Of a stretch of DNA of 64,000 nucleotides, positions 8,451-43,530 are shown in pieces. The position numbers and the translations under genes were made by a program. The notes beneath the pieces were generated by a model. The model was given only the letters and a program-made list of their open reading frames with translations, did not search any database and was not told the origin of the DNA. The number at the start of each line of letters is the position of its first letter. Position 1 is the first letter of the stretch. The stretch is from an uncultured Candidatus Saccharibacteria bacterium (lineage in GTDB: Bacteria; Patescibacteriota; Minisyncoccia; Phycocordibacterales; PALSA-1337): the NCBI GenBank assembly GCA_964558375.1, contig CAZLCD010000001.1, forward strand, positions 209,160 to 273,159, written 5' to 3'.

Positions 8451-11400
8451 ATGATAAACCATCAAGTCAAAAGTTCATATGCCATAGCAATAATCTCCAT
8501 TTTATTTTTCTGTGCATTATTTGTAGTCAATTTTGCAAGGAAAGAGATAGCTAAAATAAACTTTGTAGCTTATATACCGGAAGCTCGAACACTTCTAGCA
8601 CAAGCAGGGGGAAGTCTGAGTGATGGACTAGTGGGGCATTGGACTTTTGATGAGGGAAGTGGAACTACAGCGGGGGATTCTAGTGGGGCGGGGAATAATG
8701 GAACTCTGGTGAATTTCCCTTCAGATGGTTCTGGATGGGTTGATGGGTATTTTGGAAAGGCGCTAAAATTTAATGGAACAAACACTTATGTAAATCTACC
8801 AAAAATTTTGGCCAATAAAACCCAATTTACAATATCAATGAGGGCAAGGTTTGATGGTGCGACAGATTTTCAGGGAGCACTTATGGGTCACTCAAATGGT
8901 GGATTCTACATTCGAAAAGCTGGTTCATGTAATAGTATCATCACTTGGGTAGTAAATAGCTTGAGTACAAATGTTGGAGCCTCTCTCAATGGATCTCCTT
9001 CAAGTGGTATTGCCTGTGATAGTTGGCAAATGCATACATTTACCATGCAAACAAATGGAACTTTTTCATATTATATAGATGGAGAATTTATAAAATCTGC
9101 AACCCATCCATCATGGGATTCTTTCAATGCTTCACATGACAATAGGATTGGTCAATATGCCGGGTCTGGTTATGTATGGAATGGTCTCATAGATGATACT
9201 AGAATATATGATCGTGCTCTATCTGCTGTAGAAATTTCCGAACTTTATAATCAAGGTACACCAAATGAAGTAGTAGAAGTGTCTACAGCGGATAGAGAAG
9301 CACCAAGTATACCAGCGAATCTAGTTGCTACTTCTGTGTCAGCAACACAAAACAATCTTTCATGGGATGCCTCTACAGATAATGTCGGTGTGACTGGATA
9401 CAAGGTATATAGAGGAACAACCGATATCGGTAATACCACAAACCCTACTTTTCAAGATACAAATGTTCCCTCAGACAACTCTAGCGTCTATACTACTTCT
9501 ATATACACCGTACTTGCATATGATGCTCAGAATAATAGATCGAACAAATCCGCATCAGCTTCCGCTACTTTTCAGTCAGCCAATACAGAGAATCCAGCTA
9601 ATGTTGCTCAAAATTTAAATGGACTAACTCTAGGAACTAATCTGAGGATAGATAATCTTGGAGCGCCCTTGAAAGGTAATACTCAAGAGCATCAAGTAAT
9701 GTATAAAACAAATGATGGTCATAGACATTTACAAATGTACTATGATACTTTTGGTGCATCACCTATCGATGTTGTAGATATTGATCTCGAAAACGCTAAA
9801 GTTGTAAAATCTTCTCTCGAAAGAAATGTAGGGAGAGTCGGTACTCGTTGTCATGTGTTCTATCCAGCAAATAACAAAATGTATATAGGTAGTAGTGATC
9901 CAGGAAGCTTTAGTGAATTTGATCCTACTACCGGAGCGACCAAGTATATAAGTGCAGTAAAGTACAAAGGTGCCTATCATTGTGAAATAGGTGATGATGG
10001 ATGGATATATATAGGGCAAATAACTGCAGGTGTAGTTAAGGGGGCAGGTCTCGAAAGATACAATCCTACGACTGGTGTATGGCAAGATCTAGGAGTCATC
10101 GACCCTGCTTTTAATGGTGCTTTGCAATATGCTTACACATTAGGTGCTGACAATCGATATGTATATATTAGTCTCGGTCAACTTCCATGGTATCTAGCTG
10201 TATATGATACTCAAGCTACTTCAAATAAGATCAAGATTTACTTTAAAGAGAATGGAGATACTAATAGTAATATTTCAAAGGGTGCAGATGGCAAATGGTA
10301 TTATACAAAATATCATTTAGGAGAGACTCCGTATAAAAGAATGTATAAATTTGAAAATGGCATTCCAGTAGAAGTAAGTAGTACGCCAGTTTTGGATCAA
10401 TGGTATCAGCAGAGCAATGTGATATCTGACAAGTCAGCATTTAAGCAAGTTTTTAATACTGAAGTAAATTTTGATAAGGCAAATTCAAATTCAGAGAACG
10501 GGGGCACGGTAGAGATAAGTTGGAAGACAGATTCTGGATCTTGGCAATCTGCTACAGTGAATGGTCTCAGTCAGGTAGCAAGAACTATCAAGCGCCTGTA
10601 TCCATGGCCAGGCAGAGAAGATAAATTTCTGGGATGGGCTTCTGAATATGGATTAGTGTTTTTGTATGATGCTTCATCAAAAGATATTCAGTCATTAGGG
10701 TATCCAACAAGAAGTCTTTATGACGCTGTTTTTGTTGGTCCGATTATCTATATATCCGGATACACAGCCATTACTATGAAGTATGATCCAAGCAAACCTT
10801 GGACACTTTCAGCTTCGACCCTAGATCCGAAGTCGACTTCTGTTAATCCATACATCTTTTATGGTCAATATGGTAAGTATCATTACTATTCAACTCTAGG
10901 TTCAGATGGAATGCTATATATTGCCACCCACCATGAGCGAGGTTCAGTGGGAGGAGAGATTGCTTGGTACAACCTGAGTTCTGGCGCATCGGCTAGTCTT
11001 CGAGAACCTTTTCTGGACTATGATGTAAGTGATCTAAAAAGCGCTCTCAATGGTACCAAGATTGTCTACTCCAGTAGTAAAGATAAATTATTTATTTTCG
11101 ATGTTGCCACAAAAAGAATTGAAAGGGAAATCACTCCTATACCTGGCAATATGGAAATTGATAAAATTTTTGAAACTGAACCCGGGATTATCTTCGGTAT
11201 ATATGACACAAAATACTTCAAAGCAAATATTCAAACAGGAGAAATTATATACATAAAAGATCTTGGTGGCAGAGCTTTCCCTGGGATTCCTGCTTATGAT
11301 CGCAGACTTGTAAAAGGTCCTGACGGGTATGCTTGGCTATTTATCGATGATAAATTATCAAGAATCAATCCAGTGGACGGTACAATTCAAAAAATAATGA

Positions 11401-12011
11401 CAGCCCCAGTATCTAGCTTTATTTTTAATGGTAATGATTTGTATTTCTATGGAGGTACCACTATAAGTAGGATCAGAAATATTTTAATTGGAGAGATTAC
11501 AAATACTCCATCCATCTCTCTACCTGTAACAAACCCAGATCTTTTAAATACAGAAGATAGCCTTCCTGTAAACGCCTCCTGCTCCACCCGTCTAAACAGA
11601 TGCTCAACTGGTTCAGTCTCCGGTAGAACCTCCAACACTACTCATAACTTATGGACTTGTAATGGACTCAATGGTGGAACTAATGCTTCTTGCTCTATAT
11701 TAAAAACAGCACAAGATCCAGTAAATCCTATAGTCCCTGTAGATCCTTTACCTCTCCAAGCTCCTTTAACCCCAACCTACACTCCAGCATACACACCAAC
11801 TCATACTCCAACTACATACGTATACAAGAAACCAGCAACCCCTGCACCCAAAGTTATATCTCCCACCCCAGACCTCCCACCCTCCCCATCCTTCGAACCT
11901 CTAGACTTTATACCCACCGACTATATTCAGATATTACTCGACTTGATCAAACAATTCTTCATTGATCTTGTGGAGAGGATTAAGAGGGGAGTAGATAGAA
12001 TAATTGGATAG
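8451..12011 (+). CDS. secreted multi-domain protein: signal/TM, LamG (Laminin_G_3-like) lectin domain, FN3 domain, beta-propeller-like core, 4-Cys module, conserved C-terminal tail domain
   Basis: N-terminal hydrophobic segment, then 'LVGHWTFDEGSGTTAGDSSG..NGTL' through 'IDDTRIYDRALSAVEISELYNQG' (LamG). 'APSIPANLVATSVSATQNNLSWDAS..GVTGYKVYRG' is FN3. 'CSTRLNRCSTGSVSGRTSNTTHNLWTCNGLNGGTNASCS' is the Cys module. The C-terminus reads '...PDLPPSPSFEPLDFIPTDYIQILLDLIKQFFIDLVERIKRGVDRIIG'. Confidence 0.85.
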   Translation: MINHQVKSSYAIAIISILFFCALFVVNFARKEIAKINFVAYIPEARTLLAQAGGSLSDGLVGHWTFDEGSGTTAGDSSGAGNNGTLVNFPSDGSGWVDGYFGKALKFNGTNTYVNLPKILANKTQFTISMRARFDGATDFQGALMGHSNGGFYIRKAGSCNSIITWVVNSLSTNVGASLNGSPSSGIACDSWQMHTFTMQTNGTFSYYIDGEFIKSATHPSWDSFNASHDNRIGQYAGSGYVWNGLIDDTRIYDRALSAVEISELYNQGTPNEVVEVSTADREAPSIPANLVATSVSATQNNLSWDASTDNVGVTGYKVYRGTTDIGNTTNPTFQDTNVPSDNSSVYTTSIYTVLAYDAQNNRSNKSASASATFQSANTENPANVAQNLNGLTLGTNLRIDNLGAPLKGNTQEHQVMYKTNDGHRHLQMYYDTFGASPIDVVDIDLENAKVVKSSLERNVGRVGTRCHVFYPANNKMYIGSSDPGSFSEFDPTTGATKYISAVKYKGAYHCEIGDDGWIYIGQITAGVVKGAGLERYNPTTGVWQDLGVIDPAFNGALQYAYTLGADNRYVYISLGQLPWYLAVYDTQATSNKIKIYFKENGDTNSNISKGADGKWYYTKYHLGETPYKRMYKFENGIPVEVSSTPVLDQWYQQSNVISDKSAFKQVFNTEVNFDKANSNSENGGTVEISWKTDSGSWQSATVNGLSQVARTIKRLYPWPGREDKFLGWASEYGLVFLYDASSKDIQSLGYPTRSLYDAVFVGPIIYISGYTAITMKYDPSKPWTLSASTLDPKSTSVNPYIFYGQYGKYHYYSTLGSDGMLYIATHHERGSVGGEIAWYNLSSGASASLREPFLDYDVSDLKSALNGTKIVYSSSKDKLFIFDVATKRIEREITPIPGNMEIDKIFETEPGIIFGIYDTKYFKANIQTGEIIYIKDLGGRAFPGIPAYDRRLVKGPDGYAWLFIDDKLSRINPVDGTIQKIMTAPVSSFIFNGNDLYFYGGTTISRIRNILIGEITNTPSISLPVTNPDLLNTEDSLPVNASCSTRLNRCSTGSVSGRTSNTTHNLWTCNGLNGGTNASCSILKTAQDPVNPIVPVDPLPLQAPLTPTYTPAYTPTHTPTTYVYKKPATPAPKVISPTPDLPPSPSFEPLDFIPTDYIQILLDLIKQFFIDLVERIKRGVDRIIG

Positions 12012-12025
12012 ATAATCTGATATAA
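11757..12025 (+). repeat. family 3' tail repeat, copy 1: Pro/Thr linker 'TPTYTPAYTPTHTPT.Y.YKKP', the 'PDLPPSPSFEPLDFIPTDYIQILLDLIKQFF..' domain, and the shared downstream 'tagataatctgatataataaa'
   Basis: DNA is about 85% identical over roughly 255 nt with 17307-17580 and 22507-22765. A diverged copy lies at 56650-56898. Copies 1 and 2 also share about 20 nt of intergenic sequence after the stop codon. Confidence 0.85.
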
Positions 12026-12039
12026 TAAAATGCAAATGT

Positions 12040-15000
12040 ATGAATAGATTTTTAAAAATAATTTTACTTGTTACAATCACTGTTTCTTCAGTATCATCTA
12101 TAAATATTTCTACCGCATCTGCTAGTCTCACTGATGGCCTCGTAGCTCACTATACTTTCGATGACAATACAAATGACTCTGCTGGAACAAACAACGGTAC
12201 TGCATCAGGTGGACCAAGTTATGTAGAGGGTAAAGTGGGGAAGGCACTGCAGTTTGACGGAACCAACGACTATATAACTCTCAGTAACACTTCAGCAGCA
12301 GACATGACAACAAATAACTTCACAGTTTCTCTGTGGCTTAAAACAAATACAACAGCAACAACTCAGTATAGGTTAATAAGCAAAAGAGGTAGTGATGGGT
12401 ATGAGATCTATCTTGGTTCCGGACAAAATGGTCTCGCTGCATACTGTGATACTACTGGAGGTGGATGTTTAAATGATAATAATCTTGGAACGGCGAGCGT
12501 GAGAGATATGAAGTGGCATCATGCTGTAGTTGTGTTTGACCGTAGTGGAAATATGACTGGATATGTTGACGGTAATGTTGGTTCAAGTCCATCAAATATC
12601 TCAGCTGCAGTAGGATCTATGACAGTTGCTCAAAATCTAATGATTGGTCAATATAGTAATGGGGGTGGTGACTATTTCAACGGCACCCTCGACGACGTCC
12701 GCGTCTATAACCGGGCTTTGTCTGCTGATGAAATAATTCAATTGTACAATCAAAGTTCTGATTCCACACCAGATATTCCTGTAGAAGAAGTGCCTGATGA
12801 TACTCCAACGGATCCAACCTCAACTCCAACCCAATATAACCTATCTGTTTTAATGAGTGGTTCTGGTAATGGATCTATATCCGGTACTGGTATTTCATGT
12901 GGTACTGATTGTAGTGAAGTTGTAAATTCAGGTACGCAAGTAACGCTTACGGCTTCTCCAGCAAATAGTTCAAGTATTTTTTCTGGGTGGAGTGGAGGTG
13001 GGTGTTCCGGTACAGGAAACTGTGTAGTCACAGTCTCTTCAGACAAAACAGTAACTGCAACATTTACAACTCAACCATTAGTAATAGATGGTAAAAATAC
13101 AGTTACCCAATCAATGTTTTATACAAAAAACGGTTTATATAATGGATATGTTCGTGACAATACAGGATTCCATCCTTTTGTAGCAGATTCATTTCCAGGA
13201 CACTATATTAAAGCTGCAGATTTAAAAGGTATTAGTCAAGCATCAATCATTCCATTGGACCAGACATATTATGGTGATAATCTTGGAAATCAAGTTAATG
13301 GTTATCCCGCTAGTGAAGCAGCAGTAAAGCTCTCAGTTGGTGGAGATTCAATTTCTCTTGATTTGGTTAATATTGAATATGGAGTCTATGTGATTAGATT
13401 GGTTGGTAGGGTAAATCAACCTACCATTCCACGTATCAGGAAACCCCTCTATGTTCATTTAAAAATAAACGATGGACCGAATGGTGAAGTGAATGATTAT
13501 CGAATGAGGGTACTGTATTCTAATAACCTAGAAGAAACTGGCAGAATATTCTTTAATGCTCTAAAACCAAATAATAATCTTCATGCGGAACTTTTTGTTG
13601 GTCCAGGCAGTCAAGAAGATTTATTAATACACAGAATAGATTTTTTTGATGCGCTAGCCGATATACAGAAAAAAGCTGTGAAGACCTCAGCGACTACATA
13701 TACAGCAGAAGAAAAATCTTCTGCTCAGACTCAGGGTAAAAAACTAATAGGTCTAGGTACACGCTCATCAGATTGCGGCTTCTTTGGGATAGATTATTGC
13801 GGAGATAATATTTTTTGGCAATGGTTCAATGGTGGCTACACAACGACTCCAGCTGTGTCTTCTGCAGAAACTCGTCGACAAAGAGATGATATTATCTGGA
13901 ATGCTTTACCACCACTAAATGCCATGACAGCTGGTATAGATGGTACATACAATGCTTATGATAAATGGCCAAATGGTATGACGACTGCAGAGGTTGTCGA
14001 ACAATATGGGAAGTGGGAACTCGATCCGATAGTTACAAATCAGCAATATATCTATCAATACTATGACAGACCTTGGAAAATAGTTAATAAAAAATTGAAC
14101 CTAGAATATACCTTAGAAGATTACAAGGCTCACAAACCCCTACCCGATCCGTACCCTTTTAAAGATGATGGAAGTGGTGTTTATTTTCCAGCATCAACCC
14201 ATGACAGTCCAGGTACATATCAATTCATTATTGCTCCACTCATACTACAGAGAATACAAGGTCAATACTCAACTTCTTTTTTTGATCCAGCTGGTGGGCC
14301 GGGACTCAATTTACCATACAGGTATTTTTTGACTAATGATGAAAAAGTTGCAAGAGATACAGCTCTTGCCTTGGTCAGATTTTCTTCACAATGGCCAGCA
14401 TTTCAGTTTGAAGCTCAAGACCTTGCTTACAATAGCGCTCTTCCAGAGCTAGTTTTTAATGGAGCTTGGCGATGGACCAATGCTCGTATTGGTAAGGTTG
14501 TAGGTATAAAAGAAGACGAAATCCAAGGTTATCTCTATGCCTATGACTATCTTTTTGATTATATTAAAAATAATCAGGAATTAGCAGACGCTGTGCACAG
14601 ATATATACCATGGGTTCAAACCCCCGATGATATTATTGAACTGATCGATACTCATTTTGTTAAATCTTTAAAAAATGATATTAGTAATAAAAGAGTAATT
14701 TTTACAAAGCCCCTATTGATCGACCTTGTTCTTCAAGATACAGCGATAGAGCAGACGGAAAGCCCAATGGATATTTCAAAAATAATTAACTTCATTCATC
14801 CTCTCACTACTTCACTTAAAAATCACTATAGCAACTCCTTTACTCAAAATGGCACTATGTTCATAGGGTCATCTTTCTATGTTATCGGAGAATCTTCGGC
14901 ATTTATTAATATGCTTGACCCAATGACGCGCTACAAGGATTCGACTGGGAAATCTATTCCGTATGATCTGACTAATCTTGATTTGTTTCCAAAGGTTAGG

Positions 15001-17562
15001 GAATATTGTAATACTTTTTCTGATTATACAGTGGCGGGAGGTTACGAACCATCTTTTGGTGATGCCGCAGATACTATCTATGAAAAACGCCAGCTAAATC
15101 CAGGATTGGTTTCCCAAATTAAAAATATGTGGAGATTCTGTAGGAATCCCAAAGCCGCTTGGTTGCTTGTTAATGTGGTCGGAAGAACTGATCAAAGTAA
15201 TACTGAATGGTCTTCTGCTCAGTCGGCAGCTAATAATGTTCGTGATCCTAGAATTTCTTCTAATTCAAGAACATTAAATGGTCTAGGTCTAGGTATATTA
15301 GAGAGTGGCGTTAGTTCAAATGACTATAGAGATAAACGAGCGGTAATGGTTAGAACCGGTAGTGGTTATGGGCATGAACACCACGATGCTCTAGACCTTA
15401 GCTGGTTCGCTCTTGGACTTCGAATGGGAACTGATTATGGACAGAGGAATGAAGGAAACTTATATACCGTACCCAATGATGAAGCTTCGAATACTCACAA
15501 TGTCCTAGAGGTTGATGGTTTAAAGCATCCATTGAGAGCGACTGATGGTTGGCCATCAGGAAGTTTCTCTGCTTCAGATGCGTGGATATCAGTTTTTGCC
15601 CCAGAAAATGGAGCTCAATATATCTCTGCTCAATCAAAATCAGCTGACCATACCAATGTTAATATTTTCAGGCGAGATACTTCACTTATAGATATAGACG
15701 ATAAGAACTCCTATGTATTCGATGTCTTTAGAGTTGGTGGTGGACAAATGCACACATGGTCTTTCCATGGAGCTGATACATCAGGAGAATCTGGCGGTCT
15801 ACAAGTTAATGTGCCTATGAACTCGACTCTAGATAGTGATGCTAGTCAGTATCTTAGAAAACATGCAGAGGGTACTAGAACACAGGGTGTGGCAACTAAT
15901 AAAATTGAAGCAACATGGAGATTAGGTAGGACTTCAAATACTGCAAATCTTAACAATGCTGATGGTGCATCACTCTCAGTTACAACTGTCGCTGCAGAGC
16001 AAAGTATGCTGGGTTCTGATTACAATGCTTCCTCCCCAAGAAAATATACCAAGACTACTTTATTCGACAGATCGGGTGATAAAGTCATGATGGGTAATCT
16101 GTATTCTGCATACTACAAAATTAATGAACCAAATCTTTTTGTACAATCAGGAACTGGTGGTAGTTATAACTCTGGAAGTAATAAGCAAGATGTATATCCT
16201 GCTATAATTGAAGCTTACGCTGGTTCATCTCTTATCTCCGCTAGTCAATCACTTTCTGTTACTCCGAATGAATCTGATGCTCTAAAAGCTGTTGCGCTTT
16301 CAGTCACTACTACAAATGGTAATAATGATATATTGTTTTCAGATGGAAGAAATACAACTCGTACGATCGGAGGGGGTACTATGACCGCCAATGCGCAATT
16401 TGGTTACTATTCATCAAATGCTGGAAATATGAGAATGATGACTATTGTTGGTGGTACAAATCTAACAAAAGGAAATTATTCTCTAAAACCATCCGTTGCA
16501 GTAAATTCCTCTACTATCCAAAGTGTTAATTATCGTGATCGTAAGATATATACATCTTCAAAATTTCCAAAAACTCTTATCAATCGCGACTTTCATATAA
16601 AAAATACTGATCACGAAACTTCATACAAAATAATCAATATTGTTGACTCTGGCTCTGGTAGTATACTTACCTTCGAAAAACCTGCAGATATCGGGGTTCT
16701 TAAGATTGATGGCCTGTCAGGTAACACCATTACATCCTCAGATAGTTGGATTTTAGACTATACACCTAACAGAAATAGGGGATTAACCGGTACAAATGAA
16801 TCTGGTTCTAAAGTTTTTAAGATTAAAAAGACGGCAAGTAATGGCGGAAGTTCAAATACAATTTCTGGAGCATCTGTTTCTCAAGCTGATTTTACTGATA
16901 TTGATGGAGATGGAATCTCTCAGGTACTTGTATATGATTTTGGCATAGGCGATACAATAGAGGTTGCATCCGCCTCAACTTTAAAAAGAGTAAATAACAA
17001 TGATATATATCAACTAACAAGTAACACACCTCTGTCTGTAACTTTACCTGGTACTGGAAGCTTGGAAATTAGTTCAAATTCTTCTAGTTGGACAAAGATT
17101 AACAGTACCTTATCTACAAATTCAGTAACAGCGAACATTACTGAATCACAACTACTATCAGGTATCAAATATGTTAGAGCTTCATCAAACCCTGGTATTA
17201 ATCTTACATTAGAAGAGTTGAAAAAATTAGAGGACCAAGCTCTTCTTAATGTACCTCTTAATCCACTTACCCCATTACCTAACCCAGATCCTTTTCCTCT
17301 CTCCCCGCTAAATCCTACTACTCCAACCTACACTCCCGCATATACACCAACCCATACTCCAACACCCTATACCTACAAGAAACCAGTAACTCAAGCACCC
17401 AAGGTTATCTCTCCAACCCCAGACCTCCCACCCTCCCCATCCTTCGAACCTCTAGACTTCATACCCACCGACTATATACAGATATTACTCGACCTTATTA
17501 AACAATTCTTCATCGATCTTATAGAAAGGATTAAGAGGGGAGTAGATAGGATAATTGGATAG
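12040..17562 (+). CDS. secreted multi-domain protein: signal peptide, LamG domain, InlB-B-repeat-like Cys domain, large alpha/beta core (possibly heparinase II/III-like polysaccharide lyase; weak call), conserved C-terminal tail domain
   Basis: 'MNRFLKIILLVTITVSSVSS' is the signal peptide and LamG ends '...LDDVRVYNRALSADEIIQLYNQS'. 'SGSGNGSISGTGISCGTDCSEVVNSGTQVTLTASPANSSSIFSGWSGGGCSGTGNCVVTVSSDKTVTATF' fits the divergent InlB B-repeat pattern. 'YGHEHHDALDLSWFALGL' recalls heparinase II/III motifs with low confidence. The C-terminal tail is identical in type to that of 8451..12011. Confidence 0.85.
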   Translation: MNRFLKIILLVTITVSSVSSINISTASASLTDGLVAHYTFDDNTNDSAGTNNGTASGGPSYVEGKVGKALQFDGTNDYITLSNTSAADMTTNNFTVSLWLKTNTTATTQYRLISKRGSDGYEIYLGSGQNGLAAYCDTTGGGCLNDNNLGTASVRDMKWHHAVVVFDRSGNMTGYVDGNVGSSPSNISAAVGSMTVAQNLMIGQYSNGGGDYFNGTLDDVRVYNRALSADEIIQLYNQSSDSTPDIPVEEVPDDTPTDPTSTPTQYNLSVLMSGSGNGSISGTGISCGTDCSEVVNSGTQVTLTASPANSSSIFSGWSGGGCSGTGNCVVTVSSDKTVTATFTTQPLVIDGKNTVTQSMFYTKNGLYNGYVRDNTGFHPFVADSFPGHYIKAADLKGISQASIIPLDQTYYGDNLGNQVNGYPASEAAVKLSVGGDSISLDLVNIEYGVYVIRLVGRVNQPTIPRIRKPLYVHLKINDGPNGEVNDYRMRVLYSNNLEETGRIFFNALKPNNNLHAELFVGPGSQEDLLIHRIDFFDALADIQKKAVKTSATTYTAEEKSSAQTQGKKLIGLGTRSSDCGFFGIDYCGDNIFWQWFNGGYTTTPAVSSAETRRQRDDIIWNALPPLNAMTAGIDGTYNAYDKWPNGMTTAEVVEQYGKWELDPIVTNQQYIYQYYDRPWKIVNKKLNLEYTLEDYKAHKPLPDPYPFKDDGSGVYFPASTHDSPGTYQFIIAPLILQRIQGQYSTSFFDPAGGPGLNLPYRYFLTNDEKVARDTALALVRFSSQWPAFQFEAQDLAYNSALPELVFNGAWRWTNARIGKVVGIKEDEIQGYLYAYDYLFDYIKNNQELADAVHRYIPWVQTPDDIIELIDTHFVKSLKNDISNKRVIFTKPLLIDLVLQDTAIEQTESPMDISKIINFIHPLTTSLKNHYSNSFTQNGTMFIGSSFYVIGESSAFINMLDPMTRYKDSTGKSIPYDLTNLDLFPKVREYCNTFSDYTVAGGYEPSFGDAADTIYEKRQLNPGLVSQIKNMWRFCRNPKAAWLLVNVVGRTDQSNTEWSSAQSAANNVRDPRISSNSRTLNGLGLGILESGVSSNDYRDKRAVMVRTGSGYGHEHHDALDLSWFALGLRMGTDYGQRNEGNLYTVPNDEASNTHNVLEVDGLKHPLRATDGWPSGSFSASDAWISVFAPENGAQYISAQSKSADHTNVNIFRRDTSLIDIDDKNSYVFDVFRVGGGQMHTWSFHGADTSGESGGLQVNVPMNSTLDSDASQYLRKHAEGTRTQGVATNKIEATWRLGRTSNTANLNNADGASLSVTTVAAEQSMLGSDYNASSPRKYTKTTLFDRSGDKVMMGNLYSAYYKINEPNLFVQSGTGGSYNSGSNKQDVYPAIIEAYAGSSLISASQSLSVTPNESDALKAVALSVTTTNGNNDILFSDGRNTTRTIGGGTMTANAQFGYYSSNAGNMRMMTIVGGTNLTKGNYSLKPSVAVNSSTIQSVNYRDRKIYTSSKFPKTLINRDFHIKNTDHETSYKIINIVDSGSGSILTFEKPADIGVLKIDGLSGNTITSSDSWILDYTPNRNRGLTGTNESGSKVFKIKKTASNGGSSNTISGASVSQADFTDIDGDGISQVLVYDFGIGDTIEVASASTLKRVNNNDIYQLTSNTPLSVTLPGTGSLEISSNSSSWTKINSTLSTNSVTANITESQLLSGIKYVRASSNPGINLTLEELKKLEDQALLNVPLNPLTPLPNPDPFPLSPLNPTTPTYTPAYTPTHTPTPYTYKKPVTQAPKVISPTPDLPPSPSFEPLDFIPTDYIQILLDLIKQFFIDLIERIKRGVDRIIG

Positions 17563-17580
17563 ATAATCTGATATAATAAA
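17307..17580 (+). repeat. family 3' tail repeat, copy 2
   Basis: See copy 1. The identity is visible directly, for example in 'cccagacctcccaccctccccatccttcgaacctctagacttcatacccaccgactatat'. Confidence 0.85.
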
Positions 17581-17584
17581 GTGA

Positions 17585-19756
17585 ATGATAAAATTATTTA
17601 AAATTACTTCTGTTTGCATTTCGATTGCTATAGTCTTCTTATTATCCCTACCCACCACGACCCATGCCCTCACCCTCACTAGTAGCTCAAATAACCTAGG
17701 TCTCAATGCTGGACTTGTAGGATGGTGGACCTTCGACGGTAAAGACGTGGTCAATGGTAGAGCTTTAGACAAGTCAGGAAATGCAAATCATGGAACTCTC
17801 ACCAACATCTCTACTTCCACCTTCTATACCACAGGCAAGATCGGGCAGGGGTTTAGGTTTGATGGCACCAACGACTATATAACTCTCAGTAACACTTCAG
17901 CAGCAGACATGACAACAAATAACTTCACAGTTTCTCTGTGGCTTAAAACAAATACAACAGCAACAACTCAGTATAGGTTAATAAGCAAAAGAGGTAGTGA
18001 TGGGTATGAGATCTATCTTGGTTCCGGACAAAATGGTCTCGCTGCATACTGTGATACTACTGGAGGTGGATGTTTAAATGATAATAATCTTGGAACGGCG
18101 AGCGTGAGAGATATGAAGTGGCATCATGCTGTAGTTGTGTTTGACCGTAGTGGAAATATGACTGGATATGTTGACGGTAATGTTGGTTCAAGTCCCTCAA
18201 GTATATCAGCTGCAGTAGGCTCTATGACGGTCGCACAAAGTCTAATGATTGGTCAGTATAGTAATGGTGGCGGTGACTATTTCAACGGCTCCCTCGACGA
18301 CGTCCGTGTCTATAATCGAGCACTCTCAGCCACTGAAATCCGCCAACTCTACAACCAAGGAGCAGCCACCAAGCAAGGTGTAGCCCAGAAGGTAACAGCA
18401 ACTTCTACCTGTAGTACAGGACTATCCTGTGGGCTCGTCGGCTACTGGTCCTTTGATGGTAAAGATGTAGTAAACGGTAGAGCTCTAGATAAGTCAGGTA
18501 ATGCAAATCATGGAACTCTTACAAACATCTCCACCTCTACTTTCTATACAACAGGCAAGATCGGGCAGGGGTTTAAGTTCGATGGGGTGAATGATACCGT
18601 AAACATAGCTACAAACATGTTTGCCAACAGGACTGAGTTTTCATTGATGGTGTGGACCAAAAAAACTAAAGGAACTACAGGTTCTGTATTTTCTTCTTCT
18701 AACGGTGGTCCATATTGGAGATTCACTTCTGCAACCACAATATTGCATTATATAGAAAAATCAGACTGTACAGGATCTTCGAGAGGTGTAGCATATCCAG
18801 ATGATGGCAAGTTTCATTATATTGGTTTTACGGTCAGTACAGCTGGACTCGTTAGATTTTATGTAGATGGAGTGGTAGTTGACTCTTATACATATCCTAG
18901 TTGGAATTATGCATGTGCAGATGCTACAGATTGGCGTAGTATCGGTTCTTACGCAGTATCCAATTATTTCAACGGCCTCCTCGACGACGTCCGCATCTAC
19001 AACCGCGCGCTCTCAGCAACCGAAGTCACCCAGCTCTACAACCAAGGTGCAGCAACCAAACAAGGTGTAGCACAGAAGGTAACAGCCACCTCCACCTGTA
19101 GTACAGGACTATCCTGTGGGCTCGTAGGCTACTGGTCTTTTGATGGTAAAGATGTAGTAAATGGAGTAGCGAGAGACAAGTCAGGAGGTAACAATCATGG
19201 TAACCTAGTGAATATCGCCACTTCTACATTCTATGTACCAGGCAAGATCGGGCAGGGGTTTAAGTTTGATGGGGTGGATGATTATGTGAGTGTAGGAAAT
19301 AATACGGTTTTGGCTCCGACAACTGCGGTAACTATTTCTGCATGGGTAAAGCCGTTAAGAAAGGTTGATTCCAGTCACTACTCGGCAATTACATCAAGAG
19401 GTTCTGTTAATTATTTATTTATGATAAGACACGGTGGTGTTGTAGTTTTTTATCTTCCAGGGGTGCAGAACTGGGTTACTAATGACGGCGCAAAAGATCT
19501 CTTTGACGGCCAATGGCACCATGCTCTTGTGACTTATGATGGTAGCTTCCAGCGATTATATATCGATACTACACTTATAAGTTCTAGTGCTATAACAGGA
19601 AATATCACATCAAACTCGAATACAACTCTTATTGGTAGAGATACTACTGGTGCATCAAATTTTAATTTCAACGGCCTCCTCGACGACGTCCGTATCTACA
19701 ACCGTGCTCTCTCCGCTACCGAAGTCCGTCAACTCTACAACCAAGGTAAAAAATAA
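17585..19756 (+). CDS. secreted protein made of three tandem LamG domains; it lacks the family C-terminal tail
   Basis: 'MIKLFKITSVCISIAIVFLLSLPTTTHA' is the signal peptide. Three LamG units each end 'LDDVR[IV]YNRALSATE[IV].QLYNQG'. Linker 'AATKQGVAQKVTATSTCSTGLSCGLVGYWSFDGKDVVNG' occurs twice. The first LamG shares about 350 nt of near-identity with 12040..17562. Confidence 0.85.
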   Translation: MIKLFKITSVCISIAIVFLLSLPTTTHALTLTSSSNNLGLNAGLVGWWTFDGKDVVNGRALDKSGNANHGTLTNISTSTFYTTGKIGQGFRFDGTNDYITLSNTSAADMTTNNFTVSLWLKTNTTATTQYRLISKRGSDGYEIYLGSGQNGLAAYCDTTGGGCLNDNNLGTASVRDMKWHHAVVVFDRSGNMTGYVDGNVGSSPSSISAAVGSMTVAQSLMIGQYSNGGGDYFNGSLDDVRVYNRALSATEIRQLYNQGAATKQGVAQKVTATSTCSTGLSCGLVGYWSFDGKDVVNGRALDKSGNANHGTLTNISTSTFYTTGKIGQGFKFDGVNDTVNIATNMFANRTEFSLMVWTKKTKGTTGSVFSSSNGGPYWRFTSATTILHYIEKSDCTGSSRGVAYPDDGKFHYIGFTVSTAGLVRFYVDGVVVDSYTYPSWNYACADATDWRSIGSYAVSNYFNGLLDDVRIYNRALSATEVTQLYNQGAATKQGVAQKVTATSTCSTGLSCGLVGYWSFDGKDVVNGVARDKSGGNNHGNLVNIATSTFYVPGKIGQGFKFDGVDDYVSVGNNTVLAPTTAVTISAWVKPLRKVDSSHYSAITSRGSVNYLFMIRHGGVVVFYLPGVQNWVTNDGAKDLFDGQWHHALVTYDGSFQRLYIDTTLISSSAITGNITSNSNTTLIGRDTTGASNFNFNGLLDDVRIYNRALSATEVRQLYNQGKK

Positions 19757-19768
19757 TCTAAATGAATT

Positions 19769-22762
19769 ATGAATAGATTTTTTAAATTAATTTTATTTCT
19801 CACTATAATTATCTCAGTATCTCTTTCTACCAACATACCTAACGTATCCGCTAGTCTCACAGATGGACTAGTATCACACTATACTTTCGATGAAGGAAGC
19901 GGAACCACTGCAGGGGATTCTGCTGGGTCGAATGCAGGGACACTTACAAATGGACCGACTTGGGCTACGGGGAAAGTGGGAAGTGGGGCACTACAGTTTG
20001 ATGGAACGGATGATTTTGTAAAGTTAACTTCTCGCATTACATCCCCAGGTACTTTTTCTATGAGTCTATGGTTCTATCCAAAAACGGTATCTTATGCTGG
20101 AGGAGTTTTGATCGGTGGTTTAAATGCAAATTCTCAGATCACTGCAGGTCCTATTGTTACAGTAAGAGACAATGGTGCAGCGGCAACTGATGTAGCTATA
20201 TTAAAACCACTTTTTGCCAATAAATGGCAACATCTAGCTGTGACCCGTGGTGCGAGTAATGCTATTTTAATTTATCTAAATGGAGAAAATGTAACCACAG
20301 GCACTCCGACTTTTTCTATCACAAAATATTGGGATTATATCGGTAGTCGCTCTGATGGTCTATATCCTTTCTCTGGTTCCCTCGACGACATCCGCATCTA
20401 CAGTCGTGTTCTAGATTCTAATGAAATAGAAGAATTAAATGATATGGGTGCAGTTGTAGCTTCTGGGGACACGGAAGCACCTTCCATACCCTCTGGTCTC
20501 ACAGCTTCTCCCACATCACAATCAAAAATCAATCTATCTTGGACTGCATCTACAGATAACACTGCCGTAACAGGATACAAGATATACAGAGGTGGTTCAG
20601 AAATAGCTACCACACCAAATACTTCCTATGAAGATACAGGACTATCTCCTAGTATTCCATACACCTACACAGTACTAGCCTATGATGCTATAGGTAATCA
20701 AAGTGAAAAATCCTCTCCTACCTCTGCAACTATACAATCAGATACTCCTGTCGCAGATACACCTCCACCGGCTGACAATACAGTATGGTACGTCTCACCT
20801 ACAGGAACATCAGCTGGAACTGGTTCCATTACTAGTCCTTGGGATCTACAGACAGCTTTTACTAATACAGGTAAGAAGATAAAACCGGGACATACTGTAT
20901 GGATGCGGGGAGGGGTTTATGGGCTCGGAGGAAATACAGTTTTTGGTCATCGATGGGATGGGTTGAGTGGAACAAGTGGTAATCAAATTACTTTTAGAAA
21001 TTATGCAAATGAGCGAGCTATTATAAATGGATCTATCGCTGGAAGTGGAAATTACCTTACTTTCTTTGGATTTGAAATAATGAATTCAAATCCTGTGCGT
21101 AAGATCAGTACTTTTGATAAGCCAGGAGGGATAAATATAGGTGGTAAGGGTAACAGAGTGATCAATCTGGTTATACATGATGTAGGACATTCACCAATTG
21201 GAGGAATATCCGAAGGAGAAATTTACGGAGTAATAATGTGGGGTAGCGGTATATACGATACAAGCAATCCATTATATCCAAATGGTCTAGCCCGAGGATC
21301 TGGTATGTACCTCCAGAATCGTAATGGAAACTCTTATGTTTCCGATTCAATTTCTTTTAAGCAATTTACGACTGGAATGAAAGCCTATGCACAAGAAGGA
21401 CATGTTAATGGATTTAAATTTGAAGGCAATGTAGTGTTCGATAACAATGATATAAACCTTGAAACTATCGCAATTACAAATCCAGCTAAGGATATTTCCT
21501 GGATAGAAAATTACACTTACACAGATCCTCTTGATATTAAAAAGCCAGCACAGCTAGGATGGGTTTCAAACGATATGATAGATGCAATAGTCAAAGATAA
21601 TTATTTTGTAAATGGAAGTAATCCTAAAGGAGCACTCTTTGTTCATAAATGGAAAGATTTAAATGTGACCGGTAATACTTTTATCTCTCAACGACAAGCT
21701 GCTAACGTTCCAGTATTGTCTTTCGATATGCCTGACACCACGACTTCACATACCTGGAACTCCAACAAATATTACGGAGGCAATTCATCTTCTCTATTTT
21801 TCCTCGACAATGTTGCTAAGACCTTCGATCAATGGAAATCCACCACCGGCTTCGACTCCAACAGCACCTACTCATCATCTCTACCTAGTACCAATGCCAT
21901 TTTCGTAAGACCAAACAAATACGAACAAGGAAGAGCACATGTCATTGTCTATAACTGGGAAAACAAAAACCAAGTAAATGTAAACATTTCAAATATAGGA
22001 CTTCAAACAGGAGACAACTTTGCTATATTCGATGTACAGAACTTCCTAGGAGAACCAGTAATGAGAGGAGTGTATAATGGTCAGTCAGTAGATCTTCCTA
22101 TGAACCTCACCACCATCACTCCTCTCATCGGTAGACAAAACATTACACATTTCAATCCAAACACTCATACAGACAAGAAATTCAATGTCTTTGTTGTCTT
22201 AAAGACCAATGGAGTCTATTCTCAACAGAACTATGTGATCCCTCCACCTCCAGCAAACCTTCCTCCACCCACAGTAGAGATACCCAATCTACCAATTGAC
22301 TTACTAGTGAATGGATCTTGTTCTACACGGTTGAATAGATGCTCAAACGGCACAGTATCTGGTAGAACCTCCAACACTACCCACAATCTCTGGACTTGTA
22401 ATGGTTTAAATGGAGGTACCAACGCTTCTTGCTCTACCTTAAAGACAGTAGAAGATCCTGTAAATCCTATAGCACCTGCAGATCCTTTACCGACTCCTCC
22501 TTCTGCACTAAACCCCCTAACCCCAACCTACACTCCAGCATACACCCCAGCACACACTCCAACACCCTATACCTACAAGAAACCAACCACTTCCACACCC
22601 AAACCAATAGCAGGAACCCCTGATCTCCCACCCTCCCCGTCCTTCGAACCTCTAGACTTCATACCCACCGACTATATACAGATATTACTCGACCTAATTA
22701 AACAATTCTTCATTAATCTTATGGAGAGGATTAAGAGAGGGGTGGAGAGGATAATTGGATAA
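19769..22762 (+). CDS. secreted multi-domain protein: signal peptide, LamG, FN3, parallel beta-helix-like core (pectate-lyase-fold candidate), 4-Cys module, conserved C-terminal tail domain
   Basis: 'MNRFFKLILFLTIIISVSLS' is the signal peptide and LamG ends 'LDDIRIYSRVLDSNEIEELNDMG'. 'APSIPSGLTASPTSQSKINLSWTAS..AVTGYKIYRG' is FN3. Repetitive 'G..N..I..' turns are consistent with a beta-helix. The Cys module is 'CSTRLNRCSNGTVSGRTSNTTHNLWTCNGLNGGTNASCS'. The tail reads '...PDLPPSPSFEPLDFIPTDYIQILLDLIKQFFINLMERIKRGVERIIG'. Confidence 0.85.
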   Translation: MNRFFKLILFLTIIISVSLSTNIPNVSASLTDGLVSHYTFDEGSGTTAGDSAGSNAGTLTNGPTWATGKVGSGALQFDGTDDFVKLTSRITSPGTFSMSLWFYPKTVSYAGGVLIGGLNANSQITAGPIVTVRDNGAAATDVAILKPLFANKWQHLAVTRGASNAILIYLNGENVTTGTPTFSITKYWDYIGSRSDGLYPFSGSLDDIRIYSRVLDSNEIEELNDMGAVVASGDTEAPSIPSGLTASPTSQSKINLSWTASTDNTAVTGYKIYRGGSEIATTPNTSYEDTGLSPSIPYTYTVLAYDAIGNQSEKSSPTSATIQSDTPVADTPPPADNTVWYVSPTGTSAGTGSITSPWDLQTAFTNTGKKIKPGHTVWMRGGVYGLGGNTVFGHRWDGLSGTSGNQITFRNYANERAIINGSIAGSGNYLTFFGFEIMNSNPVRKISTFDKPGGINIGGKGNRVINLVIHDVGHSPIGGISEGEIYGVIMWGSGIYDTSNPLYPNGLARGSGMYLQNRNGNSYVSDSISFKQFTTGMKAYAQEGHVNGFKFEGNVVFDNNDINLETIAITNPAKDISWIENYTYTDPLDIKKPAQLGWVSNDMIDAIVKDNYFVNGSNPKGALFVHKWKDLNVTGNTFISQRQAANVPVLSFDMPDTTTSHTWNSNKYYGGNSSSLFFLDNVAKTFDQWKSTTGFDSNSTYSSSLPSTNAIFVRPNKYEQGRAHVIVYNWENKNQVNVNISNIGLQTGDNFAIFDVQNFLGEPVMRGVYNGQSVDLPMNLTTITPLIGRQNITHFNPNTHTDKKFNVFVVLKTNGVYSQQNYVIPPPPANLPPPTVEIPNLPIDLLVNGSCSTRLNRCSNGTVSGRTSNTTHNLWTCNGLNGGTNASCSTLKTVEDPVNPIAPADPLPTPPSALNPLTPTYTPAYTPAHTPTPYTYKKPTTSTPKPIAGTPDLPPSPSFEPLDFIPTDYIQILLDLIKQFFINLMERIKRGVERIIG

Positions 22763-22765
22763 TCC
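22507..22765 (+). repeat. family 3' tail repeat, copy 3
   Basis: See copy 1. Confidence 0.8.
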
Positions 22766-22873
22766 GCAATTCACAACATTGACTTTCCCTCAATCTTCCT
22801 GTATCTTATTCAATGTAAGTTTTCCTAGTCGCTTACAGTTTATTTATTTAAGACGGGTTAAAAGTAAAAGAAA

Positions 22874-23179: not shown

Positions 23180-23214
23180 TACCTTACCGTCTTATTTAGT
23201 CAAAAGCTAAATAC

Positions 23215-23248
23215 AAAAAACACTCAAACGAAAGTCTGAGTGTTTTTT
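23215..23248. terminator. bidirectional intrinsic terminator between the convergent RRM gene (+) and LOG gene (-)
   Basis: 'aaaaaaCACTCAaacGAAAgtcTGAGTGtttttt' has an A-tract, a stem-loop with a GAAA loop and a T-tract. Confidence 0.7.
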
Positions 23249-23267
23249 GTTGGTTATATATTGGAAA

Positions 23268-23981
23268 CTATCCAAGCATGTTTGACCATTCAGACACAGG
23301 AGATCCCTTTATAATTTTTATTGCTTCGTCTATAGAATTGGTAATTACAAAAAGATCAATATCTTTCTCTTCTATAGTATGATGTTCCTTCAACATTGTA
23401 TTCTCTATCATCGCTTTTACTGGATTCCAGAAATCTTTACCGAAGAGGATGATAGGTACAGGAGTGATCTTCTTGGTTTGCATTAAGGTCAAAATACTGA
23501 AGAGCTCATCGAATGTTCCAAACCCTCCAGGGAAGAAAACATAAGCTTCCGCTTCAAAGGTGAGCATAGCTTTTCTTGTGAAGAAATATTTGAAGACCAT
23601 AGAGTCTGTGGCATAAGGGTTCAAATGTTGCTCGTAGGGAAGTGTGATGTTCAAACCAAGAGACATTCCTCCAGCTTCCTTTGCTCCCAGATTGGTCGCT
23701 TCCATAATACCAGGACCACCACCGGTGATGATGCTATAACCTGTTTCTTTTACGATTCTTTCTGCAAGCCGCTTTGCATCGTGATAATGAGAACTAGCGG
23801 TAGTAAGTCTGGATGATCCAAAGATCGTTACGGACTTTGGATATTTTTTCATAAATTCAAAACCTTGTTTGAATTCTTGGGTAATATTATTTACATGCTC
23901 TTCAATACTTTTTGTAATTTCTTCTTCTGTCATTTTTATTTCATTTTGCATGGAAATCATTGTAACATATGTTAATATCAT
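23268..23981 (-). CDS. LOG family protein (cytokinin riboside 5'-monophosphate phosphoribohydrolase / TIGR00730 Rossmann-fold). The true start is probably the internal Met at about 23951.
   Basis: 'ITGGGPGIMEATNLGAKEAGG' and 'FPGGFGTFDELFSIL' are LOG signature motifs. Confidence 0.8.
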   Translation of the reverse strand: MILTYVTMISMQNEIKMTEEEITKSIEEHVNNITQEFKQGFEFMKKYPKSVTIFGSSRLTTASSHYHDAKRLAERIVKETGYSIITGGGPGIMEATNLGAKEAGGMSLGLNITLPYEQHLNPYATDSMVFKYFFTRKAMLTFEAEAYVFFPGGFGTFDELFSILTLMQTKKITPVPIILFGKDFWNPVKAMIENTMLKEHHTIEEKDIDLFVITNSIDEAIKIIKGSPVSEWSNMLG

Positions 23982-43500: not shown

Positions 43501-43530
43501 GACTTCACTTAAGTAAATTATCAGACACTA

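Follow-up and report, generated by a model that had tools for sequence, protein, structure and literature searches.

The closest described systems with which the locus can be compared are polysaccharide lyases of the families PL40 and PL17, large heparinase II/III-type proteins of haloarchaea, and a number of beta-helix enzymes. The PL40 ulvan lyase Uly1040 (9vtk) of a marine Alteromonas combines an (alpha/alpha)6 toroid N-domain with an antiparallel beta-sheet C-domain; His485 is its catalytic base and His487 a Mn ligand, mutation of either residue abolished activity, and Asn245 and Trp246 form a neutraliser pair (PMC12915356). The PL17 lyases Alg17c (4nei, 4ojz) and AlgL17 (9irq) share a G-H-G-H-x-D ... 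D ... H-N block, and their pair is Asn201/His202. Among the beta-helix enzymes, those most relevant here are the PL9 pectate/rhamnogalacturonan lyases (Pel9A 1ru4, 5olq), BT_1002 of family GH141 (5mqp), and the A-module of the mannuronan C5-epimerase AlgE4 (2pyg). PL9 enzymes possess a Ca2+-binding acidic cluster and a Lys base.

The window (the whole stretch of DNA that was analyzed, 64,000 nt) contains a single same-strand cluster of five ORFs (A–E, 588-22762; Table 1), which are separated by gaps of 12-28 nt and encode giant proteins with predicted export. A sixth gene of the same design, F, lies apart; all six ORFs exist at the stated coordinates on the plus strand. A hairpin between E and a convergent gene likely marks the end of the A–E transcription unit. 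One plan appears to underlie C, E, F, and probably also B: a signal peptide comes first and is succeeded by LamG, a spacer of the FN3 or InlB B-repeat type, a large core predicted to act on glycans, a linker rich in Pro, and a common tail. The explanation preferred here, in which this architecture is taken jointly with the mechanism and roles discussed below, is held with moderate confidence. The N-termini are hydrophobic in the translations, consistent with export, and the N-terminal LamG domains noted previously were recovered by the Pfam model Laminin_G_3 (PF13385; E-values 1e-20 to 1e-79) with 74 bits in B, 103 in C, 264 in D (three domains), 80 in E, and 78 in F, all above the gathering threshold of 27.6 bits. 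Nucleotides 12229-12528, at the LamG domain of C, are 96% identical to the first LamG of D, a protein that has neither a catalytic core nor the tail and would be an accessory lectin. The spacers had been described as FN3; this applies to E and F, which match Pfam fn3, but C carries an InlB B-repeat (Flg_new_2) instead, and the respective region of B matches no Pfam fn3 and just those parts of NCBIfam and PHROG models that contain fn3. The Pro-rich, amphipathic C-terminal tail is common to B, C, E, and F, matches no family model, and had no match in a metagenome scan; in relatives of C its place is taken by a dockerin, by a PG_binding_1 domain, or by Calx-beta together with LamG. The LamG domains would direct the enzymes to a glycan, and the tail would hold them on the cell surface, an anchoring function that we infer. 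Such a modular plan is a plausible route by which a bacterium with a reduced genome, as suggested here by synteny with a 602-kb contig, could display glycan-cutting activities on its surface.

Table 1. Coordinates of the genes, domains, and conserved sites discussed in the text (positions within the window).
Feature	Position (nt)	Strand	Remarks
ORF A	588-8432	+	First gene of the A–E cluster
ORF B, 1186 aa	8451..12011	+	N-terminal membrane/signal segment, LamG, FN3-like region, kelch-like repeats (weak), Cys motif, tail
ORF C, 1840 aa	12040..17562	+	Signal peptide, LamG, InlB B-repeat, ~1,350-aa lyase-like module, Pro-rich linker, tail
C LamG (Laminin_G_3), aa 73-232	12256..12735	+	
C divergent InlB B-repeat (Flg_new_2), aa 274-344	12859..13071	+	
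C family-specific N-terminal beta-sandwich of core, aa 350-539	13087..13656	+	Predicted model
C alpha-helical (toroid-like) domain, aa ~549-1069	13684..15246	+	Carries Tyr947 (nt 14878-14880), Tyr835/Asp836, Asp1008
C antiparallel beta-sandwich, aa 1077-1482	15268..16485	+	Matches entire beta-domain of PL40 Uly1040
C putative active-site/metal block YGHEHHD...D...R...HN	15367..15501	+	Alignment to Uly1040
C C-terminal extension, ~240 aa	16486..17199	+	Family-wide conservation
C Pro/Thr-rich linker and common tail	17242..17559	+	...PDLPPSPSFEPLDFIPTDYIQILLDLIKQFFIDLIERIKRGVDRIIG
ORF D, 723 aa	17585..19756	+	Signal peptide and three LamG domains
ORF E, 997 aa	19769..22762	+	Signal peptide, LamG (20000-20428), fn3 (20486-20728), beta-helix core, Cys motif, tail
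E right-handed parallel beta-helix, aa ~339-684	20783..21820	+	Predicted model
E conserved polar stripe	21074-21346	+	Glu436, Asn466, His470, Asp471, Glu484, Tyr486, Tyr514, Gln516, Asn517, Asp526
E C-terminal beta-sandwich packed after helix, aa ~700-813	21866..22207	+	Conserved RPNKYExGRAH block
Hairpin, 17-bp stem	23213..23250	.	A and T runs flanking; between convergent genes E and 23268-23981
ORF F, 1294 aa	53014..56898	+	LamG, fn3, probable beta-helix core (54151-55893), two Flg_new_2 stretches, tail
Tail repeat copies	11762-12032 (B), 17313-17583 (C), 22513..22783 (E), 56728-56881 (F)	+	

The core of C belongs to an unnamed family of about 1,350 aa with homology to the heparinase II/III-like lyase superfamily. 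A fold of the heparinase II/III or alginate-lyase type had been suspected for the alpha/beta core of C, and the family profiles, an AF2 model, and the alignment of catalytic residues bear this out. At 50% identity the family forms at least 223 clusters with E-values ≤1e-30, and 1,793 matches were obtained at ≤1e-3. Neither Pfam nor NCBIfam has a model for it, and its two members with a source name are both called “hypothetical”; it may already have a place in CAZy. When the cores were searched as single sequences against Pfam (E ≤ 10) or the PDB, nothing useful came out, and profiles were needed; a scan for related loci likewise found no relatives with a single protein but did find loci with a 5-sequence alignment. 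All PDB matches of the C family profiles at E-values ≤1e-4 were PL40 or PL17 lyases, with values of 9.6e-9 and 5.4e-9 for Uly1040, 4e-6 and 1.1e-6 for AlgL17, and 1e-6 to 4e-5 for PL17 over its histidine block. The Uly1040 alignment covers just the beta-domain (chain 447-850, E-value 5e-9) at about 14% identity. The helical domain of C had no significant alignment to Uly1040, so that significant sequence similarity to PL40 does not span the entire catalytic module, and its alignments to PL17 chains were collinear without being significant (i-E > 1e3). No protein of this set reached a curated catalytic-domain cut-off, and Pfam returned nothing for the cores of C, E, and F at E ≤ 10. Specifically, C had no match to Hepar_II_III_C (PF07940) at this level, two of its relatives (P0009 and P0002) scored 15.2 and 13.6 bits, below the cut-off of 24, and the NCBIfam model for PL17 oligoalginate lyase (NF042990) gave 14.2 bits against a cut-off of 1400 (E-value 0.0097, aa 1095-1236 only).

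The connection to the superfamily was provided by a tblastn search of a plasmid collection, in which all nine matches lay on haloarchaeal megaplasmids; eight fall on genes annotated as “heparinase II/III family protein,” whereas the record of the remaining one is unannotated. One of them passes PF07940 with 40.9 bits (cut-off 24), and this bridge protein aligned with the C family profile over 691 columns that span the helical and the beta domain (hhalign 99.9%, E-value 1.6e-31), which establishes homology to Hepar_II_III_C proteins at the superfamily level. The bridge sequence stems from the plasmid search, as the library-wide profile search listed strong family members only. Such PF07940 proteins, for example the haloarchaeal WP_252490855 (1,235 aa), to which these alignment values apply, are similarly large and share the conserved IGD, Tyr, and H-x-H-x-D positions with the C family; identity is about 19-21%. 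In the AF2 model (pLDDT 83.7, pTM 0.82) C displays the (alpha/alpha)6 toroid and antiparallel beta-sheet plan of PL40, the family to which, judged from this prediction, the C family is nearest in structure. It differs from Uly1040 by an additional N-terminal beta-sandwich, which the two-domain description of Uly1040 does not include, by the C-terminal extension, and by its occurrence mostly in PVC bacteria; PL17 lyases are about half the size of C-family proteins. Fold, profiles, and putative catalytic residues together connect this unnamed family with the heparinase/alginate/ulvan-lyase superfamily, which provides a predicted activity for its genes, found repeatedly in exopolysaccharide loci of Verrucomicrobiota, Kiritimatiellia, and Planctomycetota.

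The motif of C highlighted in the preliminary description, YGHEHHDALDLSWFALGL, occurs exactly at aa 1110 (nt 15367-15420) and holds the putative catalytic-base and metal-ligand histidines. His1112 aligns with His485 of Uly1040 and His1114 with His487, and both also align with the GHGH block of Alg17c (PMC4765187). The check for conserved catalytic residues that had been proposed earlier yielded a putative set: His1112, His1114, Asp1116, Asp1132, Arg1136, His1153, Asn1154, and Tyr947 each show at least 90% conservation across 93 relatives, and C retains every one of them. The near-invariant Tyr947 precedes the putative base His by 165 residues, compared with 155 for the corresponding distance in Alg17c and 180 in Uly1040; at the sequence level, Tyr947 and Asp1008 are conserved candidates with a spacing compatible with the acid Tyr305 and with Asp358 of Uly1040. 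No conserved Asn-His or Asn-Trp pair was recognised in the C family as a counterpart of the neutralisers of PL17 and Uly1040. By analogy, C would act on a uronic-acid polysaccharide, cleaving or possibly epimerising it via proton abstraction at C5, with His1112 as base, positioned by a metal site of His1114, Asp1132, and His1153, and with Tyr947 of the helical domain as acid. The same C5 proton-abstraction chemistry on uronates is used by dermatan-sulfate epimerase 1 (6hzn), which is eukaryotic and was not matched at the sequence level by any of the PDB profile searches. The data are compatible with a lyase, a C5-epimerase, or a binding protein; for now, the assignment is of practical use in improving annotation and in naming a few residues to mutate.

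Parallel beta-helices had been proposed for E and F on the basis of two motifs. The fold holds for E, whose model (pLDDT 90.1) is a right-handed parallel beta-helix, but both motifs, MTIDGGSGTIDGQNNGFFLVYGSS (nt 54463) and IDNNRFDIIGWYVSIYGKNGGGENGD (nt 54613), are absent from E and occur only in the core of F. The E profile matched BT_1002 (E-value 3.5e-7) and PL6 and PL9 chains (7e-7 to 3e-5; 2e-5 for the PL9 lyase compared here), the BT_1002 and PL9 matches lying mainly in the N-terminal cap. Most of the listed homologues of E have precomputed Pfam matches to Pel9A-like_beta_helix (PF22842) or Beta_helix (PF13229), although the core of E itself matches no beta-helix family at E ≤ 10. The adhesin PfbA and epimerases were found among its fold neighbors at nearly the same Z as lyases and hydrolases. 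The helix turns showed no conserved Lys or Arg, which tips the balance towards a hydrolase; E would most likely be a glycoside hydrolase or lyase for a second linkage. For F, the fold is suggested by weak profile matches: AlgE4 was the sole notable PDB match (E-value 3.4e-5) over about 90 residues of the N-terminal beta-helix cap, and a few homologues have a Pfam Beta_helix match. F also contains at least three Cys motifs (regex), and genes of its family have PL14, beta-helix, or SASA esterase genes as neighbors. Between the E and F families there is hardly any relationship (hhalign just 54%), for which reason a reading of the two as close paralogues was rejected. The propeller-like core suspected in B found slight support in a Kelch_6 match below the Pfam cut-off and a phmmer match to the kelch domain of KLHL17 (E-value 1.7e-4). 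The fold assignments of the lectin-fused cores hold, for C and E by model and profile and, tentatively, for F and B by weak matches.

The preliminary description regarded these proteins as plausibly directed at a host cell envelope. Candidate substrates would be an envelope polymer of a neighbor or host, or the matrix of the cell itself, and no genes for uronate catabolism or sugar import were seen adjoining the cluster. An alternative regarded as rather unlikely is that C, and perhaps E, acts on extracellular polysaccharide made by the organism itself, either as a C5-epimerase or as a lyase that trims chains, in the manner of AlgL or AlgG in alginate synthesis. C-family genes are located within EPS-synthesis loci in three PVC genomes, where one adjoins a beta-helix gene; the second-closest relative of C (P0004) is encoded among GT4 and GT2 glycosyltransferases, an asparagine synthase, a CapK-like ligase, and the exosortase EpsH, L008 and L006 are EPS-type loci of the same kind, an E-family gene resides in a cluster with glycosyltransferases and a carbamoyltransferase, and the epimerases AlgE4 and AlgG are among the top fold matches of E. 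Because relatives of C and E are often found in such loci, processing of an own polymer is indicated at least as much as attack on a host envelope. However, no glycosyltransferase, Wzx/Wzy, or sugar-nucleotide gene was detected by Pfam among the scanned ORFs of at least 150 aa in the window, the closest relative with the same architecture (P0003) has no EPS genes around it, and the cores at this locus are fused to lectin domains and the tail and lie amid adhesin-like proteins, unlike the PVC members, which are bare proteins of about 1,350 aa. A more specific version of the lectin-guided reading, to be regarded as speculative and rather doubtful, is that the C core represents a new PL family with a PL40-like His/Tyr and metal mechanism, an N-terminal beta-sandwich, a C-terminal extension, and an ancestral role in exosortase-type EPS loci of PVC bacteria. 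A small-genome, possibly episymbiotic, bacterium would have acquired it and fused it to LamG and to a previously undescribed surface-retention tail common to the beta-helix and propeller enzymes, giving rise to a toolkit against the glycan coat of another cell. If the target is indeed the envelope of another cell, this bears on the attachment and feeding of such bacteria.

Two further readings dispense with an enzymatic role or with a cellular origin. The cores might be catalytically dead scaffolds in adhesins or lectins that bind glycans and reuse old enzyme folds, as could be argued from the several LamG domains per cluster, the LamG-only composition of D, the scores below curated catalytic family thresholds, and the adhesin-like neighbors detected in the Pfam scan (an LVIVD-repeat protein and a pilin with a LamG domain at its tip). 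This appears improbable in view of the retention in C of every residue that is at least 90% conserved in its relatives, including His-x-His-x-Asp, Asp1132, His1153, and Tyr947, and in E of the entire conserved Glu/Asp/His/Tyr stripe, as degenerate binding modules usually lose such residues. A prophage, or phage-derived tail fibres and tailspike depolymerases, came into consideration through the intramolecular-chaperone domain Peptidase_S74 in A, which is typical of tail fibres, through the many phage tailspikes among the fold matches of E, and through PHROG matches in all six proteins. This origin was rejected as highly improbable: the PHROG matches in B–F cover only LamG and FN3 and never a core, A matches just two PHROGs, both of unknown function, and no capsid, terminase, or integrase gene was seen. 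In addition, the proteins begin with signal-type segments and end in C-terminal tails, and the cluster is flanked by housekeeping genes (TGT, aldolase, GyrB, ThrRS, DnaE, SMC, and RNase R).

Five long ORFs (A to E), separated by only 12-28 nt, form a cluster at the start of the window, and a further gene (F) of similar design lies apart from them (Table). Their N-termini are of the exported type, and Pfam assigned only accessory domains to them: Laminin_G_3, present in B, C, E, and F and threefold in D; fn3, present in E and F; and the InlB B-repeat Flg_new_2, present in C and F. The lectin domains of the preliminary description were thus recovered, and its FN3 spacers were found in E and F, whereas C carries Flg_new_2. 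For the cores, the large glycan-active candidate regions between spacer and Pro-rich linker, Pfam searches retrieved no family even at E ≤ 10, and single-sequence searches of the PDB returned no chain. The cluster is flanked by ordinary chromosomal genes coding for TGT, class II aldolase, GyrB, ThrRS, DnaE, SMC, RNase R, ribosomal proteins S2 and L25, and a release factor (PCRF/RF-1 domains). A prophage origin was rejected because the PHROG matches of B-F were confined to LamG and FN3 and the flanks consist of housekeeping genes; ORF A matched just two PHROGs, both of unknown function.

Positions of features in the window or, where indicated, in the loci of relatives
Feature	Position	Strand	Remark
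ORF A	588-8432	+	long ORF
ORF B	8451-12011	+	long ORF
ORF C	12040-17562	+	long ORF
ORF D	17585-19756	+	long ORF
ORF E	19769-22762	+	long ORF
ORF F	53014-56898		same design as cluster genes, 30 kb distant
LamG of C	12229-12528		
First LamG of D	17834-18133		
Tail repeat, B	11762-12032		
Tail repeat, C	17313-17583		
Tail repeat, E	22513-22783		
Tail repeat, F	56728-56881		
Four-Cys motif, B	11580-11693		
Four-Cys motif, E	22319-22432		
Four-Cys motif, F	55927 onward		at least 3 copies
Hairpin, 17-bp stem	23213-23250		after E, ahead of convergent gene
Additional LVIVD repeats	16-232		running beyond the window 5' end
Pilin-like protein	29182-30048	+	288 aa
PheRS	35770-36900	-	376 aa
ThrRS - small ORF - DnaE	40825-47299		
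80-nt direct repeat	43558-43784		inside ORF 43531-44076
C-family gene, L008	7261-11571		
C-family gene, L006	8861-12491		
C-family gene, L011	8001-12644		P0004, 46% identical to C
Haloarchaeal genes, L017	1742-5449, 5658-8420		'heparinase II/III family'
Haloarchaeal gene, L018	2204-6121		'heparinase II/III family'

A word-indexed search with aa 350-1500 of C retrieved 36 relatives, three of them source-named (all 'hypothetical protein') and the others nameless; in none does a Pfam domain fall on the core, and most are made up of a signal peptide and a module of ~1,300 aa. Exhaustive profile search extended the family to 1,793 representatives at E ≤ 1e-3 (223 at E ≤ 1e-30), and almost all of the best 150 have 1,200-1,500 aa. 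The AlphaFold2 model of the core, calculated on the 36-sequence alignment (pLDDT 83.7, pTM 0.82), comprises a beta-sandwich (core residues 1-190), a helical domain (~200-720), and a large antiparallel beta-sandwich (728-1133). It matched the folds of the ulvan lyase Uly1040 (PL40; score 33.2, 648 residues aligned), dermatan-sulfate epimerase 1 (a eukaryotic epimerase of no PL family; 25.6), AlgL17 (PL17; 25.6), Dp0100 (PL39; 24.9), Atu3025 (PL15; 24.3), heparinase III (PL12; 23.4), heparinase II (PL21; 21.8), and GAGase II (PL35; 20.5). Therefore, the earlier suggestion of a heparinase II/III or alginate lyase was right at the fold level.

C itself stayed below every curated family threshold tried, with no match to PF07940 and 14 bits against the NCBIfam oligoalginate lyase (cut-off 1400); its close relatives scored 13.6-15.2 bits against PF07940. 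Profiles of the C family matched lyases as the sole PDB entries. With 36 sequences AlgL17 was found at E 0.006, with a trimmed set of 12 sequences AlgL17 (4e-6), Alg17c (8e-4), and Uly1040 (1e-3), and with 93 sequences Uly1040 at 9.6e-9 over its entire beta-domain (residues 449-850); with 49 sequences including two archaeal proteins, all eight PDB matches at E ≤ 1e-4 were PL40 or PL17. A tblastn search of C against 72,556 plasmids gave nine records, every one a haloarchaeal megaplasmid, and in eight of these the matched genes are annotated 'heparinase II/III family protein', the remaining record being unannotated. One of the proteins encoded there, a haloarchaeal bridge protein of 1,235 aa, matched PF07940 at 40.9 bits (cut-off 24) and aligned with the C-family profile in hhalign at 99.9% (E 1.6e-31) over 691 columns including the helical domain. 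Judging from these comparisons, C is homologous to the heparinase II/III-like superfamily, because its profiles matched only lyases in the PDB and because the bridge protein is PF07940-positive. The family to which it belongs is sizeable and uncharacterised and forms a distant branch of this well-known lyase superfamily, and the large haloarchaeal proteins are evident distant homologues, helical domain included. On the haloarchaeal megaplasmids, 'heparinase II/III family' genes of 1,235-1,305 aa at times occur in tandem.

The sequence YGHEHHDALDLSWFALGL occurs exactly in ORF C at aa 1110. The G-H-x-H block of the C family aligned with, and resembles, I-H485-G-H487 in the Uly1040 beta-domain (positions counted off the printed alignment), and it also aligned with G-H413-G-H415 of the PL17 oligoalginate lyase Alg17c. 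In Uly1040, His485 is the catalytic base, His487 a Mn ligand, Asp358 the relay between them, Tyr305 the acid, and Asn245 and Trp246 the carboxylate neutralisers, and mutation of His485, His487, Tyr305, or Asp358 abolishes activity (PMC12915356). The proposed catalytic residues of Alg17c are Asn201/His202, Tyr258, and Tyr450 or His415 (PMC4765187). The block of C comprises His1112, His1114, Asp1116, Asp1132, Arg1136, His1153, and Asn1154, all seven of which are conserved to at least 90% among 93 relatives and kept in C; the core is thus, as predicted from these alignments, a lyase-superfamily core bearing the catalytic His pair. In structures of PL17 and PL21 enzymes, the metal site is presumably built from the second His of the block, its Asp, and the later His.

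The helical domain, which gave no significant alignment to solved chains, contains the near-invariant polar residues Tyr835/Asp836, Asp864, and Tyr947, and Asp1008 is likewise strongly conserved, being present in 33 of the 36 closest relatives. The spacing between acid Tyr and base His is 165 residues in C (from Tyr947), 155 in Alg17c, and 180 in Uly1040, and the bridge protein has a Tyr opposite Tyr947 and the Asp of an IGD motif opposite Asp1008. Because of this spacing and these counterparts, Tyr947 is the putative catalytic acid; Asp1008 may be the relay. Unlike Uly1040 and Alg17c with their Asn245/Trp246 and Asn201/His202 pairs, the C family has no recognised Asn-His or Asn-Trp neutraliser pair.

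The genome loci of the C family derive from MAGs of Verrucomicrobiota, Kiritimatiellia, and Planctomycetota. In three loci the gene lies within an exopolysaccharide-synthesis cluster, next to asparagine synthase, two GT4, GT2, FkbM methyltransferase, DegT, and an initiating sugar transferase (L008), a Wzy-like protein, GT4, AMP-ligase, and asparagine synthase (L006), or asparagine synthase, six GT4, GT2, a CapK-like ligase, and exosortase EpsH (L011); it is a recurrent, unannotated part of Verrucomicrobiota exopolysaccharide-synthesis loci. Elsewhere a beta-helix gene adjoins it (L007) or a GH42-like gene, an AXE1 esterase, and an ABC sugar transporter are close by, and several neighbourhoods held nothing informative. 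In relatives, the tail is replaced by dockerin, FN3 with PG_binding_1, or Calx-beta with LamG as extracellular modules. Because of these neighbourhoods and appended modules the family is regarded as glycan-associated. Exopolysaccharide-synthesis clusters being its commonest context, a role as lyase or epimerase on a polymer made by the own cell is suggested, and thus stays a rival to the attack on a host considered plausible in the preliminary description. P0003, in which LamG precedes the core as in C, is encoded on a 602-kb ENA contig (L009) that probably stems from a related small-genome organism, since the ThrRS - small ORF - DnaE arrangement of the window recurs there, with LVIVD and pilin genes nearby.

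For the core of E (aa 325-860) 361 relatives were found, and most of the 120 listed have precomputed PF22842 (Pel9A-like_beta_helix) and/or PF13229 assignments; a local Pfam scan of E itself matched neither. The AF2 model (pLDDT 90.1, pTM 0.89) bore out the proposed beta-helix and settles the predicted fold as a right-handed parallel beta-helix with a small beta-sandwich C-terminal to it. The E-family profile matched GH141 BT_1002 (3.5e-7), PL6 lyases, chondroitinase B, and a PL9 lyase in the PDB, chiefly over the N-terminal cap, and Foldseek gave generic beta-helix matches. Successive turns carry a polar stripe (Glu436, Asn466, His470, Asp471, Glu484, Tyr486, Tyr514, Gln516, Asn517, and Asp526) that is shared by at least 57 of 69 relatives and kept in E; E is thus a beta-helix whose acidic groove is conserved. 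A hydrolase would be favoured over a Ca-dependent lyase, because no basic residue on the helix turns is conserved among the relatives. One E-family gene lies inside a glycosyltransferase and carbamoyltransferase cluster.

Both strings quoted earlier as beta-helix repeats, and placed partly in E, sit in F. The F core has at least 885 relatives, almost all unannotated proteins of ~500 aa, a few with a Beta_helix match, and the family profile matched only the AlgE4 epimerase N-cap (3.4e-5) and pectinesterase (0.046) in the PDB, so that a beta-helix is plausible on these grounds. The E family and the putative beta-helix family of F, both unannotated, are barely related (hhalign, 54%); PL14, beta-helix, and SASA esterase genes are among those adjoining F-family members.

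For B, a propeller-like core had been proposed; kelch signals were seen, but only weak ones. ORF D consists of three LamG domains without core or tail, and its first LamG is 96% identical to that of C at the DNA level, the remainder of both genes being unrelated, a pattern suggesting that gene conversion or module exchange between paralogues took place recently. In ORF A (2,614 aa), 13 LVIVD repeats are split between two blocks; it also has a Peptidase_S74 intramolecular-chaperone domain (aa 2245-2291), a type known from phage tail fibres, and a Ser/Thr- and Glu/Lys-rich C-terminal end. Additional LVIVD repeats precede it.

A common module closes B, C, E, and F: a Pro/Thr-rich linker and then ...PDLPPSPSFEPLDFIPTDYIQILLDLIKQFFIDLVERIKRGVDRIIG. 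Its DNA copies are 77-93% identical and extend past the genes into the next intergenic region. It matched no family in Pfam or NCBIfam; the closest relatives of F, P0157 and P0158 from other samples, have a similar terminal helix ...ERI(E/W)RG(I/V)(Q/E)RV(V/M)GR. Possibly the module is a signal for surface retention or sorting that is specific to the lineage; the combination of the cores with LamG and this tail is a local modular design. Between cores and tails of B, E, and F lies a four-Cys motif of ~38 aa (C-S-T-x-L-N-x-C...N-T-T-H-N-L-W-T-C-x-G-x-N-G-G-x-x-x-S-C), which had no family match and probably forms a small spacer domain with disulfide bonds. In the proposed working, the tail would hold the enzymes at the cell surface and the LamG domains would bring them to a glycan, where C would cleave or epimerise a uronic-acid polymer via His1112 and Tyr947 with the metal site, E would cleave a second linkage, and D would serve as accessory lectin. 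These findings help annotation and are experimentally tractable, and involve no new principle.

Elsewhere in the window, the PheRS consists of a class II catalytic core with an FDX-ACB anticodon-binding domain attached directly, an arrangement typical of the monomeric mitochondrial-type enzyme and unusual in a bacterium; no beta subunit was seen within the window. The direct repeat (80% identical, 147 nt spacing) is an internal duplication within a small protein of unknown function. The pilin-like protein has a type IV pilin methylation motif (N_methyl) at its N-terminus followed by LamG, and the LamG theme thus reaches pili too.
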